From positions 27,827 to 91,826 of the forward strand of contig JAHBVL010000003.1 in assembly GCA_019637585.1 (NCBI GenBank): a stretch of 64,000 nucleotides of DNA, written 5' to 3'. The notes under the pieces were generated by a model, which ran no database searches, was not told where the DNA came from, and was given only the letters and a program-made list of their open reading frames with translations. This document shows positions 5,684 through 63,147 of this stretch, one piece after another. Source of the DNA: Thermomicrobiales bacterium. Its GTDB lineage: Bacteria; Chloroflexota; Chloroflexia; Thermomicrobiales; UBA6265. The position numbers and the translations under genes were made by a program. Within the stretch, counting starts at the first letter, position 1; the number at the start of each line of letters is the position of its first letter.

Positions 5684-6226
5684 ATGGACGCACCACGCCA
5701 GGCCAGACCAACCGAGGGTTTCGACGTCGAACCACATCCCGAAGAAGGCACGGCGGAGATCCTCTACGTCCTCGATCAGCTCGAGGACATGGTCGGCGTC
5801 AGCAAGCGGGTGCCGTTCAGCAACAAGGTCATGGTCGAGGAGGAGTTCTTTCTCGATCTCGTCGAACAGCTGCGCATCGCCATCCCGAACGAGGTCAGGC
5901 AGGCGCAGCGAGTCGTTCGCGACCGGGAGAGGATCATTGCCGAAGCGCAAATGGAAGCATCGCGCATTGTCGAAGCCGCCCGATCGCGGGCTGAATACCT
6001 GATCTCCGAACACGGCATCCTCAACGAAGCGCGCCAGCGCGCCGAGGATCTGCTCGAACAGGCCGAAGAGCGGAAGAAACGCGAGCTCGGCGAAATCGAC
6101 GTCTATGCCATGGAGCAGTTCAACCACGTCTCCCAGGCAATCCAGGATGGCCTGGACATCGTCGAGCGCGCCCTCCACGACACACTGGCCGAGATCGACC
6201 GCGCCAGGAATAGCGTCGGACGGTGA
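5684..6226 (+). CDS. Hypothetical coiled-coil protein (possibly DivIVA-like); function unknown
   Basis: ORF with GAGGGG RBS before the ATG at 5684; acidic N-terminus then a long Glu/Arg/Ala-rich helical region; no confident family assignment. Confidence 0.5.
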   Translation: MDAPRQARPTEGFDVEPHPEEGTAEILYVLDQLEDMVGVSKRVPFSNKVMVEEEFFLDLVEQLRIAIPNEVRQAQRVVRDRERIIAEAQMEASRIVEAARSRAEYLISEHGILNEARQRAEDLLEQAEERKKRELGEIDVYAMEQFNHVSQAIQDGLDIVERALHDTLAEIDRARNSVGR

Positions 6227-6232
6227 CGGGGC

Positions 6233-6349
6233 GGAGTCCGAGGTCCGGAGTCCGAAGTCCGTTGTCCGTTGTCCGTTGTCCGTTGTCCGTAGAAGCTTGG
6301 TTTCCCGGCGCATGTCGCCTGCTCGGGACTTCGGACTTCGGACTTCGGG
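6233..6349. repeat. Inverted pair of heptamer arrays (ggagtcc/gaagtcc/gttgtcc x8, and ggacttc x3) forming a long hairpin just after the stop of the coiled-coil gene
   Basis: Direct reading; gaagtcc units at 6233-6290 are complementary to ggacttc units at 6326-6346; a degenerate CC-rich heptamer run continues to about 6420. Confidence 0.85.
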
Positions 6350-6530
6350 CCAAATCTCCTCTCCGCCTTCCCGCCCATTCGCCTTTCCGCCTCCGTCCGT
6401 CTTGCCGACTCGCCGTCTCGTCCGTATACTTCCATTTCCTCGTCGGGCTCAGGTCCGGCGTTTTTTCCGTGGGTGACGAGCTGAACACCGGCGCGGCGTA
6501 CGTCGCGGCTGCACCTCCGGTTGGCACGAA

Positions 6531-21656: not shown

Positions 21657-21864
21657 GTAGCGGCGAGGCCTGCCTCGCTCGTCGGTCCGCGGTGGTCGCG
21701 ATGGGCAATGCAGGCATTGCCGCTACAGCTGGGCACGTAACACCACGGCGACGTGGGTCTTGCCCCGATATACAAGACCACCCCGTCGATGTAGCGCCGA
21801 GGCCTGCATCGCCCGTCGGTCCGCTGCGGTTGCGATCGGCAATGCAGGCATTGCCGCTACAGCT
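21657..21864. repeat. Two 75-bp direct repeats (21657-21731 and 21790-21864), each with terminal 8-bp inverted ends (gtagcggc/gccgctac) and a central perfect palindrome ggcaatgc-ag-gcattgcc; followed by a tttccca/tctacca heptamer run (21889-21925)
   Basis: Direct reading. Confidence 0.8.
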
Positions 21865-32680: not shown

Positions 32681-32856
32681 CTCAGGCCTCAGACGCCGGA
32701 CGCTGCTGATGCGAGGGGCTGGCACAGGGACCAGCCCGTACGGGCACCCCACTGTGGGTGCCCTTCTCATCCCCAGCGATGGCAGTCGGAGGCTTGACCG
32801 GATTGCTCATCGGGCGACAGATATGACCTTTGACAGCGATCTTATCGCCATGTAGC

Positions 32857-33010
32857 TGCAGACCCCCGTGTCTGCGATTGTATGGGAGACGCTGCCATCG
32901 CTCGCCACGATCCTCATTCGCAACAACCGCGACCCGGCATTGGCAAGCGAAGAGAAGTCGCCGCCAACGTATTCATTGTTTCCCTGAGAAAGCAGACACG
33001 GGCGTCTGCG
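32857..33010. repeat. Element bounded by 18-bp hairpin-forming inverted ends (gcagacccccgtgtctgc ... gcagacacgggcgtctgc) with a roughly 115-bp unique centre
   Basis: Direct reading; a second element with identical ends is at 62945-63089. Confidence 0.8.
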
Positions 33011-33063
33011 CCTACAGACCAACACTGAGGGGGTGCTGCCTTATTGAATAGTCCGGGCTGGGC

Positions 33064-48564: not shown

Positions 48565-48727
48565 TCCCTCACCCCCAACCCCTCTCCCGACCGGAGATAT
48601 CCCTCACCCCCAACCCCTCTCCCGACCGCGGGAGAGGGGAGTACGTGCTATTTCCCATTTCCATTTGCTCACCGCCCATTTCCCATTTCCCATTTCCTAT
48701 TTCCCTTTACCCCTTGCCCTTTGCCTG
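48565..48727. repeat. Composite repeat (forward copy): two direct copies of tccctcacccccaacccctctcccgacc, GC hairpin cccctctcccg-accg-cgggagagggg, then heptamer array tttccca/ttgccct (48648-48727)
   Basis: Direct reading; inverted copy at 25985-26152 and a shorter copy at 61394-61475. Confidence 0.85.
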
Positions 48728-50175
48728 GTATGGAATGATTTGTCAACCCAGCGGGCGCCTGTCCTTCTTTCAGTCGTCGTCGTTCTCCTTTCGTTCATGA
48801 TCGTGCTCGTGTGGCGCAGTGTGGTGAAACCGGCGGACGACCCACCAGGTCCAGCGACGATGGATCACCCTGGTATACGCGGATTGGCTACCGCATGATC
48901 ATGATCCGTCTGGGGCTGCCTCGCTCTTTGGGCGCGGATTGGGTACCGCAAGGCAAAGGCCGAGGGTTCCCCGACATCGGCTGCGGCTCCTCCGCCGGCA
49001 TCACCACACCACGCTGTTCGGTGTCAGGCACTCCTCCCAAGCTGTCCAATCGCCCAGATGAAACCAGCCAGCGCCCGGGCCACGGCAATGATCGCCACCT
49101 GCCGCGGTTTACCCCGATTGACCAGTTTCCAGTAGATCGTGTGCAAGCGGACCCTCGCCTTGTGGGCGATCTCTTCCGCCGGGGTTGTCGGCTTCGGTCG
49201 GTTGCTCCCTTTATAGGGTCGTGTGTAGTGCCAGGCCGCCTCCACCAGCAGGAAGCGCAGGTGGGCATTGCCCGTCCGGGTGATCGATCCCCGGCTCTGC
49301 CGACCTCCGCTGGAGTGCTCCCGGGGCACCGTTCCGTTGTAGGCCATGTAGGCCGGCGCCGAGTCAAAGCGGGTCAGATCACCCGACTCGGCCACAATCC
49401 CGGCTGCCGTCACCACGCCCACCCCATGCAGGGCTTGCAGATTGACCATGGTCTCGGCCATGCTGCTCTCCAGGCTGGCGGTCGTCAGGGCCGCCGTCAA
49501 CCGCTTCACCCGGTCTTCCGCACTCCGCACCGCCTGCCGATCATCCTCCAGCACGAACTGGGCGGTGGCGTCCGGAACGGTCACCTCCTCCAGCCACCGC
49601 CACCACCGTTGCGTCCATCGCGATCCTGCCGGTTCCGTCACCCCCTGCTGGGTCAGCAACTTCAACAGCCGTTGCCGCTGCCGGTGTTGATCGCGCACCG
49701 CCTGCTCGCGGGCTCGCGACAGCGCCCGAAATCCCTCCAGCTCCCGACTCGGCAGCGGCACCGCCGTCAGCAACCCCGTGCTTAGCAGGTGCGCCAACTG
49801 CCGCGCGTCCCGCCGGTCGTTCTTGATCCGGTCTCCCGGTCGTCGCGGGATCAGCGCCGGCGCCACCACCACGCAGGCAATCTCCATCTTCGCTAGCTGT
49901 CGGGCGATCCCATAGCCGCACGGTCCCGCTTCGTAGCAGACCCTCAGCTCCTCTCGCGCTCCCCAGCTGGGCACCCGTTTGGCCAGCTGGTCCGGTCGAT
50001 TCGGAAAGGTCCCCAGTTCTCGAATCTCCCCATCCGCCGTGATCGCCGCCGCTGTGATCGTCTCCTTATGCGCATCCAGTCCAATCCATGTGCTACCGTG
50101 TGCCATGACCGATCTCCTGTCGCGTGTAGCTCGGCGCGCCCTGTGCGCGCAACCTACGATAGTTCGCGTCCACGG
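48725..50175 (-). mobile_element. IS110-family insertion sequence (boundaries approximate)
   Basis: Contains the IS110 transposase gene; imperfect inverted ends atggaatga (48727-48735, 50163-50171); both sides abut heptamer-repeat sequence (ttgccct... left, ttttgcc... right). Confidence 0.6.
49024..50106 (-). CDS. IS110 family transposase (DEDD-type)
   Basis: 360-aa ORF MAHGSTWIGLDAHKETI...N-terminal DEDD domain and C-terminal Transposase_20-like region characteristic of IS110. Confidence 0.85.
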   Translation of the reverse strand: MAHGSTWIGLDAHKETITAAAITADGEIRELGTFPNRPDQLAKRVPSWGAREELRVCYEAGPCGYGIARQLAKMEIACVVVAPALIPRRPGDRIKNDRRDARQLAHLLSTGLLTAVPLPSRELEGFRALSRAREQAVRDQHRQRQRLLKLLTQQGVTEPAGSRWTQRWWRWLEEVTVPDATAQFVLEDDRQAVRSAEDRVKRLTAALTTASLESSMAETMVNLQALHGVGVVTAAGIVAESGDLTRFDSAPAYMAYNGTVPREHSSGGRQSRGSITRTGNAHLRFLLVEAAWHYTRPYKGSNRPKPTTPAEEIAHKARVRLHTIYWKLVNRGKPRQVAIIAVARALAGFIWAIGQLGRSA

Positions 50176-50185
50176 GGTCGGTCAT

Positions 50186-50232
50186 TCCATTGTCTCTTTT
50201 GCCTTTTGCCTTTTACCCTCCGCCCCGTACGT
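50186..50232. repeat. Short heptamer array ttttgcc x2-3 (rc of the ggcaaaa family) at the right flank of the IS110 element
   Basis: Direct reading: tctcttttgccttttgccttttaccctccgcc. Confidence 0.7.
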
Positions 50233-62849: not shown

Positions 62850-62880
62850 CGCCCCGGGGCGCCTGTTCGGCCCGGGGCGA
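62850..62880 (+). terminator. GC-rich stem-loop after rpmE (gccccgggg ... cccggggc)
   Basis: Direct reading. Confidence 0.35.
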
Positions 62881-62944
62881 TGCATTTGCCATCGGATGGT
62901 GACGGCGCCACAGGGCTGAGTCACCCTTCATCTTCCTAGTAGTT

Positions 62945-63089
62945 GCAGACCCCCGTGTCTGCCGACTCTCGCGAACACGGCGTCATCCATAGGCTGCGCA
63001 CGGATCGAATCAGTGATCTGGATCTGCTGCCAGCTTCGCTGCAATGAACCCGCGCCGTTTCCCATGGATGGGCAGACACGGGGCTCTGC
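62945..63089. repeat. Second element bounded by the same 18-bp hairpin inverted ends (gcagacccccgtgtctgc ... gcagacacggggctctgc) with a different roughly 110-bp centre
   Basis: Direct reading; ends identical or near-identical to 32857-33010. Confidence 0.8.
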
Positions 63090-63147
63090 GACTACAGAGC
63101 GATCACGGTGTGGGTGCTGGATAGCCAGCGATTCGTCTGATGCGGGT

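Follow-up and report, generated by a model that had tools for sequence, protein, structure and literature searches.

REPs are palindromes of 20 to 40 bp that carry an unpaired GTAG and are divided into sub-families by complementary changes in their stems (Di Nocera et al. 2013; PMC3733652). They favour convergent and unidirectional intergenic gaps, with several families per genome, and a normal organisation for them is the inverted dimer, which folds into one large stem-loop and is designated HH when the GTAG lies on the outside (PMC3733652). A family of this kind, GTAG-23, is present in Thermomicrobium roseum, and roles at mRNA 3' ends or as RNA elements have been proposed for REPs (PMC3733652). 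The enzyme associated with them, TnpA-REP/RAYT, binds single-stranded REP DNA, needs the GTAG, and cuts at a neighbouring CT or CA; binding and cleavage have been demonstrated only for the systems of E. coli, S. maltophilia, and Marinomonas (Corneloup et al. 2021; PMC8266576). In the group-3 systems, the loop bases are critical and changes in the stem are tolerated, and the Marinomonas REP is a perfect palindrome of 5 bp situated 2 bases from its GTAG (PMC8266576).

A sequence-only reading of the 64-kb stretch of DNA analysed here (the window) had singled out two elements with identical, inverted 18-bp ends and unrelated interiors and had suggested that they might be cassette or recombination-site boundaries around variable cargo or hairpins bracketing small RNAs. 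The window belongs to a Thermomicrobiales (Chloroflexota) MAG, of the same broad lineage (Thermomicrobia) as T. roseum: the flotillin encoded in it is 100% identical to MBX3070221.1 (locus tag KF883_07010), from a 555-kb contig of a Thermomicrobiales MAG, and the CoA-ester lyase is 100% identical to a protein of that contig. Most probably, each element consists of two GTAG-tagged REPs of a RAYT-associated family, arranged head to head as a dimer, with unrelated filler between the two units. The 18-mer GCAGACCCCCGTGTCTGC lies on the plus strand at 32858-32875 (the start had been placed at 32857) and at 62945-62962, and its inverted copies lie at 32992-33009 and 63072-63089; all four copies that had been read are thus present, the inverted ones with one mismatch each. 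These are the only matches in the window with up to three mismatches, compared to an expectation of 0.12, and four or more were obtained in 0 of 100 shuffles. The inverted arms extend beyond the 18-mer to 25 nt, being 88% complementary in element 1 (TGTAGCTGCAGACCCCCGTGTCTGC / GCAGACACGGGCGTCTGCGCCTACA; 32851-32875 / 32992-33016) and 92% complementary in element 2 (62939-62963 / 63071-63095). They include the GTAG head, and therefore each arm consists of GTAG, linker, stem, and loop. In all four arms, the REP unit measures 24 nt: GTAG is followed by a 2-nt linker and then by a 6-bp palindromic stem, perfect or nearly so, that encloses a 6-nt loop (CCCCGT or GCCCGT), in agreement with the 6-bp stem and 6-nt loop originally discerned in each 18-mer.

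In element 1 (32852-33015), the left unit (32852..32875, plus strand) reads GTAG-CT-GCAGAC-CCCCGT-GTCTGC and the right unit (32992..33015, minus strand) GTAG-GC-GCAGAC-GCCCGT-GTCTGC, with a spacer of 116 nt (32876..32991) between them. In element 2 (62939-63095), the corresponding units are GTAG-TT-GCAGAC-CCCCGT-GTCTGC (62939..62962, plus strand) and GTAG-TC-GCAGAG-CCCCGT-GTCTGC (63072..63095, minus strand), separated by 109 nt (62963..63071). The GTAG heads, at 32852, 33015 (minus), 62939, and 63095 (minus), are each 2 nt from the stem, and both doublets are inverted and head to head, with the tags outside. CT immediately precedes the GTAG on its 5' side in both right-hand units, and the left arm of element 1 is preceded, at a distance of 1 nt, by CA. 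A GGGA(A/G)AC box recurs 7 to 8 nt inward of the hairpin in three of the four arms (inward GGGAGAC at 32884-32890; GTTTCCC, the reverse complement of GGGAAAC, at 32978-32984 and 63057-63063), so that the conserved end module measures about 39 nt. The whole doublets fold at -73.8 and -85.0 kcal/mol (z = -5.9 and -6.9), and these strong folds come from the arms, the interiors by themselves having no significant structure (z = -0.2 and -1.1). Thus, we found at these sites the features by which REPs are recognized: short palindromic stem-loop units with an unpaired GTAG at one end, lodged in extragenic convergent gaps, inverted dimers that fold into a larger hairpin, and sub-families with compensating stem changes (see below).

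Both gaps are convergent, as had been proposed, that of element 1 lying between a flotillin gene (+) and a DUF218 gene (-) and that of element 2 between the genes for ribosomal protein L31 (+) and a CoA-ester lyase (-). The end of the right-hand unit is 48 nt away from the stop codon of DUF218 in element 1 and 52 nt away from that of the CoA-ester lyase in element 2. All three REP-bearing gaps of the window are convergent, a configuration seen at about 11 of its roughly 50 gene junctions. The third gap, flanked by an aminotransferase gene and a MobA-like gene, holds a second REP family in the form of a compact head-to-head doublet (21657..21726; GTAGCG-GCGAGG-CCTG-CCTCGC, a 25-nt spacer, and GGCAATG-CAGG-CATTGCC-GCTAC) and its tandem second copy, 134 nt from the first (21791..21860). 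By these doublets, the genome of this uncultured Thermomicrobiales bacterium is seen to have two or more families of GTAG REPs. Generic GTAG-plus-hairpin sites number 21 in the window, which is not clearly above the shuffles (13.9 on average, 21 at most); the case for REPs rests on the specific families and not on a general excess of GTAG hairpins. The genes of the window (about 50 ORFs, Pfam) are housekeeping ones, among them recG, fabH, fabG, accC, nusB, tatC, def, priA, trpS, and those for L21, L27, and L31, and the sole mobile gene is an IS110-family transposase unrelated to the doublets. No RAYT gene was recovered from the 64-kb window in tblastn searches (E up to 1).

Several further observations were made in and around these regions. 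The IS110-family element (about 48723-50200) encodes its transposase (DEDD_Tnp_IS110 and Transposase_20 domains) on the minus strand at 49024-50108, and its short inverted ends, ATGGAATGA as read by eye, differ from those of the doublets. A palindrome tagged at both ends (GTAGctcgGCGCGCcctgtGCGCGCaaCCTAC; 50126-50157) lies in the stretch that separates the start of the transposase from the end of the IS. Its loop resembles the CCCTGT loop of the REP family, and no Rfam match was found in this region. Short repeats of the CC(n)TTTCC / CCTTTTGCC type occur on both sides of the IS110 element (48650-48722 and 50196-50220), and similar tracts follow REP arrays in the metagenome contigs L143, L148, and L149 (e.g., ccctttccgtcttgccaccgttccgctttgccacc). 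In the 148-aa product of the L31 gene (62372-62818, +), the Pfam L31 domain covers residues 1 to 62 only; a 140-aa gene occupies the syntenic position in the related contig L151 (11097-11519).

The family to which the unit belongs is widespread in Chloroflexota and other phyla. A cross-phylum scan with one genome per species recovered at least 116 loci with the hairpin, nearly all of them in a longer conserved form with a GG linker, GTAGGGGCAGACCCCCGTGTCTGCCC; the matches listed came from many phyla, among them Chloroflexota, Bacteroidota (Prevotella), Gammaproteobacteria, Armatimonadota, Hydrogenedentota, Acidobacteriota, and Desulfobacterota. The window's own variant, with a linker other than GG, was found in 29 metagenome contigs. 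The GCAGAC unit thus amounts to four copies in the 64-kb window, with the variant in the 29 contigs and the GG-linker form at the at least 116 genome loci. It may be added that the identical 26-mer GTAGGGGCAGACCCCCGTGTCTGCCC is seen in genomes of many phyla (L001-L116), low-GC Prevotella included. REPs are usually lineage-specific. The exact sequences of this 26-mer, the 18-mer GCAGACCCCCGTGTCTGC, and the 16-mers occur in no searchable paper.

Of 96 units among the matches listed, 51 are paired with an inverted unit such that the GTAG tags lie outside, mostly at a distance of 0 to 50 nt, and the stems of the two generally differ (44 heterodimers versus 7 homodimers). Covariation was evaluated in units picked only by the GTAG head and the C[CT]C[CT]GT loop, with exclusion of the stem that had been used for fishing. 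Their stems are perfectly paired in 57 of 71 cases, with 14 stem sequences represented, where shuffling of partners leads one to expect 5.0, which points to selection on the hairpin structure. A conserved head and loop combined with covarying stems is the behaviour of GTAG-tagged REPs. In most of the 29 metagenome contigs, the unit and a second REP type together make up a compact pair (...GTCTGC-tctggccGGGAA-GGCAACGCATGCGTTGCnGCTAC), and these pairs are often tandemly repeated (e.g., four times in L138); overall, the metagenome units are mostly single or paired at 9 to 12 nt. The second REP type resembles the window doublets at 21657-21726 and 21791-21860, and the GGGAA box of the pairs matches the tails of the window arms. 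As a separate observation, the right-hand unit of the doublets at 21657-21860 resembles the GCAACGCATGCGTTGC partner that stands beside the GCAGAC unit in metagenome contigs. The sequence-only reading had foreseen that the 18-mer might prove to be a standalone, REP-like hairpin with only incidental pairing; it is indeed REP-like, being found elsewhere singly, in compact pairs, and in tandem arrays, but its pairing is not incidental, because REPs are normally found, among other arrangements, as inverted dimers (PMC3733652).

A connection to RAYTs emerged from contigs other than the window. The E. coli RayT query, whose sequence agrees with PDB entry 4ER8, gave one weak tblastn match, in L093, and closer RAYT queries taken from L093 and L132 were used for further searches. 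The L093 ORF (2599-3183) codes for a Y1_Tnp protein (Pfam; E = 7e-6), has GTAGGGGCGG(C/T)TCGCGA(G/A)CCGCCCCTAC palindromes on both sides (GTAGGGGC...GCCCCTAC), and shares its 8-kb locus with two CCCCGT-loop units; a literature search on GTAGGGGC returned irrelevant primer matches only. With this ORF as the query, homologues were recovered in L082, L057, and L036, where the fished hairpin lies inside or against the gene. The Y1/HUH genes at or around units in these four contigs have as their best NCBIfam match NF047646, 'REP-associated tyrosine transposase' (E = 6e-14 and 1.5e-15), with scores of 52 to 57 bits, below the curated cut-off of 80. In the metagenome contigs L132 and L134, an exact copy of catGTAGCTGCAGACCCCCGTGTCTGC, which reproduces the left arm of element 1 together with its flank, precedes by 44 nt a 225-aa RAYT-like ORF, whose best NCBIfam match is likewise NF047646 (E = 6e-14, below the curated cut-off) and which contains two inverted copies of the unit. 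Both copies show signs of decay: that of L132 has Tyr in place of the first His of the HUH motif, and that of L134 is interrupted by an in-frame stop. Thus, a RAYT gene flanked by the same REP, as in a REPtron, occurs within the family, with scores below the cut-off and with the L132 and L134 copies looking decayed; this links REP and RAYT at the family level, and by analogy, a RAYT may also have mobilised the REPs of the source genome.

In RAYT-like genes of different phyla, REP units are found within the coding sequence, in a variable insert just after the HUH motif. The genes with embedded units are located at 5711-6367 (-) in L082, 2300-2892 (-) in L057, about 8-319 in L036, 2599-3183 in L093, and 99-776 in L132. 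The units of the last, at 408-431 and 480-503, translate as ...SRHGGLRLR...SRHGGLGLH..., and that of L082 as ...HGIIILVGADPRVCPDADPRVCPGQ.... A likely transposase gene would thus carry its own substrate hairpins in frame.

Comparison with relatives at the locus of element 1 (86 to 94% protein identity) was limited to scoring presence or absence, as the spacers are too diverged for boundaries to be placed at base level. Two relatives with the same gene order and 88% flotillin identity (L120 and L121) have a 114-bp gap without the doublet. In L118 (86% flotillin identity), the same site reads GTACGC-ATCGAC-CTCCGT-GTCGAT, then 112 nt, then GCAAAC-ACGGAG-GTTTGC-AGCTAC. Architecture and spacing are therefore kept at this site, while a loop letter has changed, the stems (ATCGAC/GTCGAT and GCAAAC/GTTTGC) have compensated, and the interior is unrelated. 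Element 2 is absent from L151 and L152 (70 to 73% identity), where the gap holds only a plain terminator hairpin, and no GTAG hairpin was detected across the 20.9 kb of L151. The presence-absence pattern and the divergence in L118 indicate that the doublets were added in particular lineages and undergo turnover, as REPs would be expected to do. The comparison of related loci proposed earlier thus brought out presence and absence, but no swapping of content has to be invoked, as ordinary divergence explains L118 as well. In the closest relative (L117; 94% flotillin identity), whose contig ends about 295 bp after the gene, a copy of the hairpin-bearing segment CGCTGCTGATGCGA(A/G)GGGCTGGCA...GGGACCA lies downstream of the flotillin terminator and not upstream (L117 11480-11520 compared with window 32700-32727), which suggests local rearrangement of the gap between L117 and the window.

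The DNA between the arms, 109 to 116 nt, is spacer and not cargo. As had been claimed, the two interiors are unrelated: local alignment in either orientation gave no similarity above that of shuffles (P = 0.40 and 0.26). The genome and metagenome sequences compared contain no further copy of either interior, and neither has a convincing ORF, promoter consensus, or terminator consensus. Hence, elements 1 and 2 do not share a spacer in the way that copies of one REPIN doublet do. Only one feature is slightly out of the ordinary, namely that identical units recur at a spacing of about 110 nt. This spacing is kept at three sites (116, 109, and, at the L118 site orthologous to element 1, 112 nt), and the 29 metagenome loci with the variant include no homodimers whose spacers are about 110 nt long, which indicates that the arrangement is not usual for the family. 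As only two cases are independent, the spacing may be a coincidence. The simplest route to such long-spacer homodimers would be two separate insertions of one REP-plus-tail module into one gap. We consider it very unlikely that the doublet is instead a composite unit, in which two identical REP-plus-tail modules about 110 nt apart bracket host DNA and can be moved by RAYT, or that a protein-binding architecture sets the spacing. The similar spacing at two loci and its retention in L118 despite turnover of stem and interior are consistent with such a reading; if it were true, a RAYT moving both modules together would be the HUH-transposase counterpart of a composite transposon.

The interpretation of the elements as REP doublets has to be weighed against three others. 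One is that they are MITEs, that is, non-autonomous derivatives of a DDE-type IS with 25-nt terminal inverted repeats and an interior that has diverged or been replaced. Inverted ends of 25 nt with 88 to 92% complementarity, a length of about 165 bp, an intergenic location, and absence from some relatives agree with this. However, there is no target-site duplication at either element (flanks ...atcgccat / agaccaac... and ...ttcctagta / agagcgat...), and the ends are nearly identical while the interiors are unrelated, as had been remarked in setting the elements apart from classic MITEs. Moreover, each end is a complete GTAG hairpin that elsewhere occurs alone, compactly paired with the other REP type, or in tandem arrays, with stem covariation pointing to selection on the hairpin structure. 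The sole gene found bounded by the unit codes for a RAYT-like Y1 transposase and not a DDE enzyme, no DDE element with these ends is present in the sequences compared, and the ends of the window's IS110 element differ; a MITE is therefore highly improbable. Exchangeable cassettes between integron attC-like or similar recombination sites could likewise have structured, conserved ends around variable sequence of similar length, and the orthologous site of L118 does show the same frame with different content. Yet, the 64 kb, made up of housekeeping genes, have no integrase or other site-specific recombinase besides the unrelated IS110 (Pfam annotation of about 50 ORFs), the interiors of 109 to 116 nt lack a convincing ORF and do not recur in the sequences compared, no cassette array is seen, and the ends carry GTAG and not attC-type core sites. 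As the unit is elsewhere mostly single or paired at 9 to 12 nt, and the L118 difference is equally well explained by ordinary non-coding divergence at 86% protein identity, we regard variable cargo between cassette boundaries as extremely unlikely. The earlier idea of a recombination site survives in another form: the ends are most likely the sites that a RAYT HUH transposase recognises and cleaves, as predicted from the characterised systems.

The third alternative, that the doublets are primarily RNA elements, which would stabilise the 3' ends of the convergent mRNAs, terminate these mRNAs, or bracket a small RNA, with mobility irrelevant, appears unlikely. In its favour, with an inverted pair inside a convergent gap, transcripts arriving from either side would run into the same GUAG-hairpin, the right-hand units follow the minus-strand stop codons at the distances given above, and such roles have been proposed in the REP literature (PMC3733652). 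Against it, no terminator-like hairpin with a U tract was found at the elements (0 sites), a promoter was likewise not detected, and neither element contains an Rfam match at gathering or permissive thresholds (E up to 1); no evidence emerged for the bracketing of small RNAs. The plus-strand genes already have GC-rich hairpins of their own upstream of the doublets (32721-32765 and 62852-62880), relatives manage without doublets, and the conserved GTAG head and loop together with the adjacency to RAYTs argue for an origin at the DNA level. An RNA role is best seen as a possible secondary function and not as an alternative origin. Other candidates were tried and rejected. The doublets do not appear to be deleted REPtron remnants, since their interiors are unlike the L132 RAYT region or any other locus; a CRISPR-like reading of the hairpin and GGGAAAC tail fails on units that are inverted and not direct and on the absence of an array; and the TA of a putative IS630-like target duplication belongs to the GTAG/CTAC tags themselves.

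If the doublets are REPs, as we favour, a RAYT acting in trans would bind the hairpin in single-stranded DNA, by analogy with E. coli, Stenotrophomonas, and Marinomonas, read the GTAG and the loop bases, and cut at a nearby CT or CA, and such cleavage could seed or copy units into gaps downstream of genes. On this model, the head and loop would be conserved because the enzyme reads them, and the stems would be free to change as long as they remain paired. Since both incoming transcripts would encounter the same GUAG-hairpin, a putative secondary role as a 3'-end RNA hairpin is plausible, and the placement of units 48 and 52 nt after the minus-strand stop codons points to the 3' ends of those mRNAs. 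The main value of the analysis is correct annotation, as REP doublets and not as cassettes, MITEs, or small-RNA genes. To our knowledge, REPs have been studied almost only in Proteobacteria. A hairpin with a conserved head and loop across phyla, with copies inside a likely transposase coding sequence, may bear on how REPs and RAYTs spread and persist.

Among known systems, MITEs resemble the window doublets in being small, non-coding, and intergenic, with inverted ends and a patchy occurrence among relatives; the doublets differ in having neither a target-site duplication nor a conserved interior and in having autonomous, GTAG-tagged hairpins as ends, associated with Y1/HUH and not DDE enzymes. 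The REPINs of Pseudomonas fluorescens, reported by Bertels and Rainey in 2011, reportedly consist of two inverted REPs in one long hairpin and are thought to be moved by RAYT. A REPIN is copied whole, and its copies therefore share a spacer. The window doublets share with REPINs and with the BIMEs of E. coli the two inverted REPs in one long hairpin and, in related contigs (e.g., L138), the tandem alternating arrays, but they have only their REP-plus-tail modules in common and are not copies of each other as doublets. The group-3 REPtrons (Marinomonas REP-Mb and Stenotrophomonas REP-Sm) are closer, with a short perfect palindrome, two bases, and GTAG, with critical loops and tolerant stems, and with a CT or CA beside the REP comparable to the CT directly before the GTAG in both right-hand units of the window (PMC8266576). 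They differ in their proteobacterial hosts and in their stems and loops, and the window family is known from sequence alone, its nearest RAYT-like genes being partly decayed. Against the HH dimers of the GTAG REP super-family, the window spacers, at 109 to 116 nt, are slightly longer than the typical 20 to 100 bp (PMC3733652), the 6-nt CCCCGT loop exceeds the 2- to 3-nt loops of many families, and the spacers vary where those of HH dimers tend to be conserved (PMC3733652). The GTAG-23 family of T. roseum belongs to this super-family (PMC3733652). In all other respects compared, the doublets agree with this super-family: an unpaired GTAG, a 6-bp stem, inverted dimers with the GTAG outside, spacers that are alike in length but may differ in sequence, sub-families with compensating stems, multiple families per genome, and location in convergent gaps (PMC3733652).
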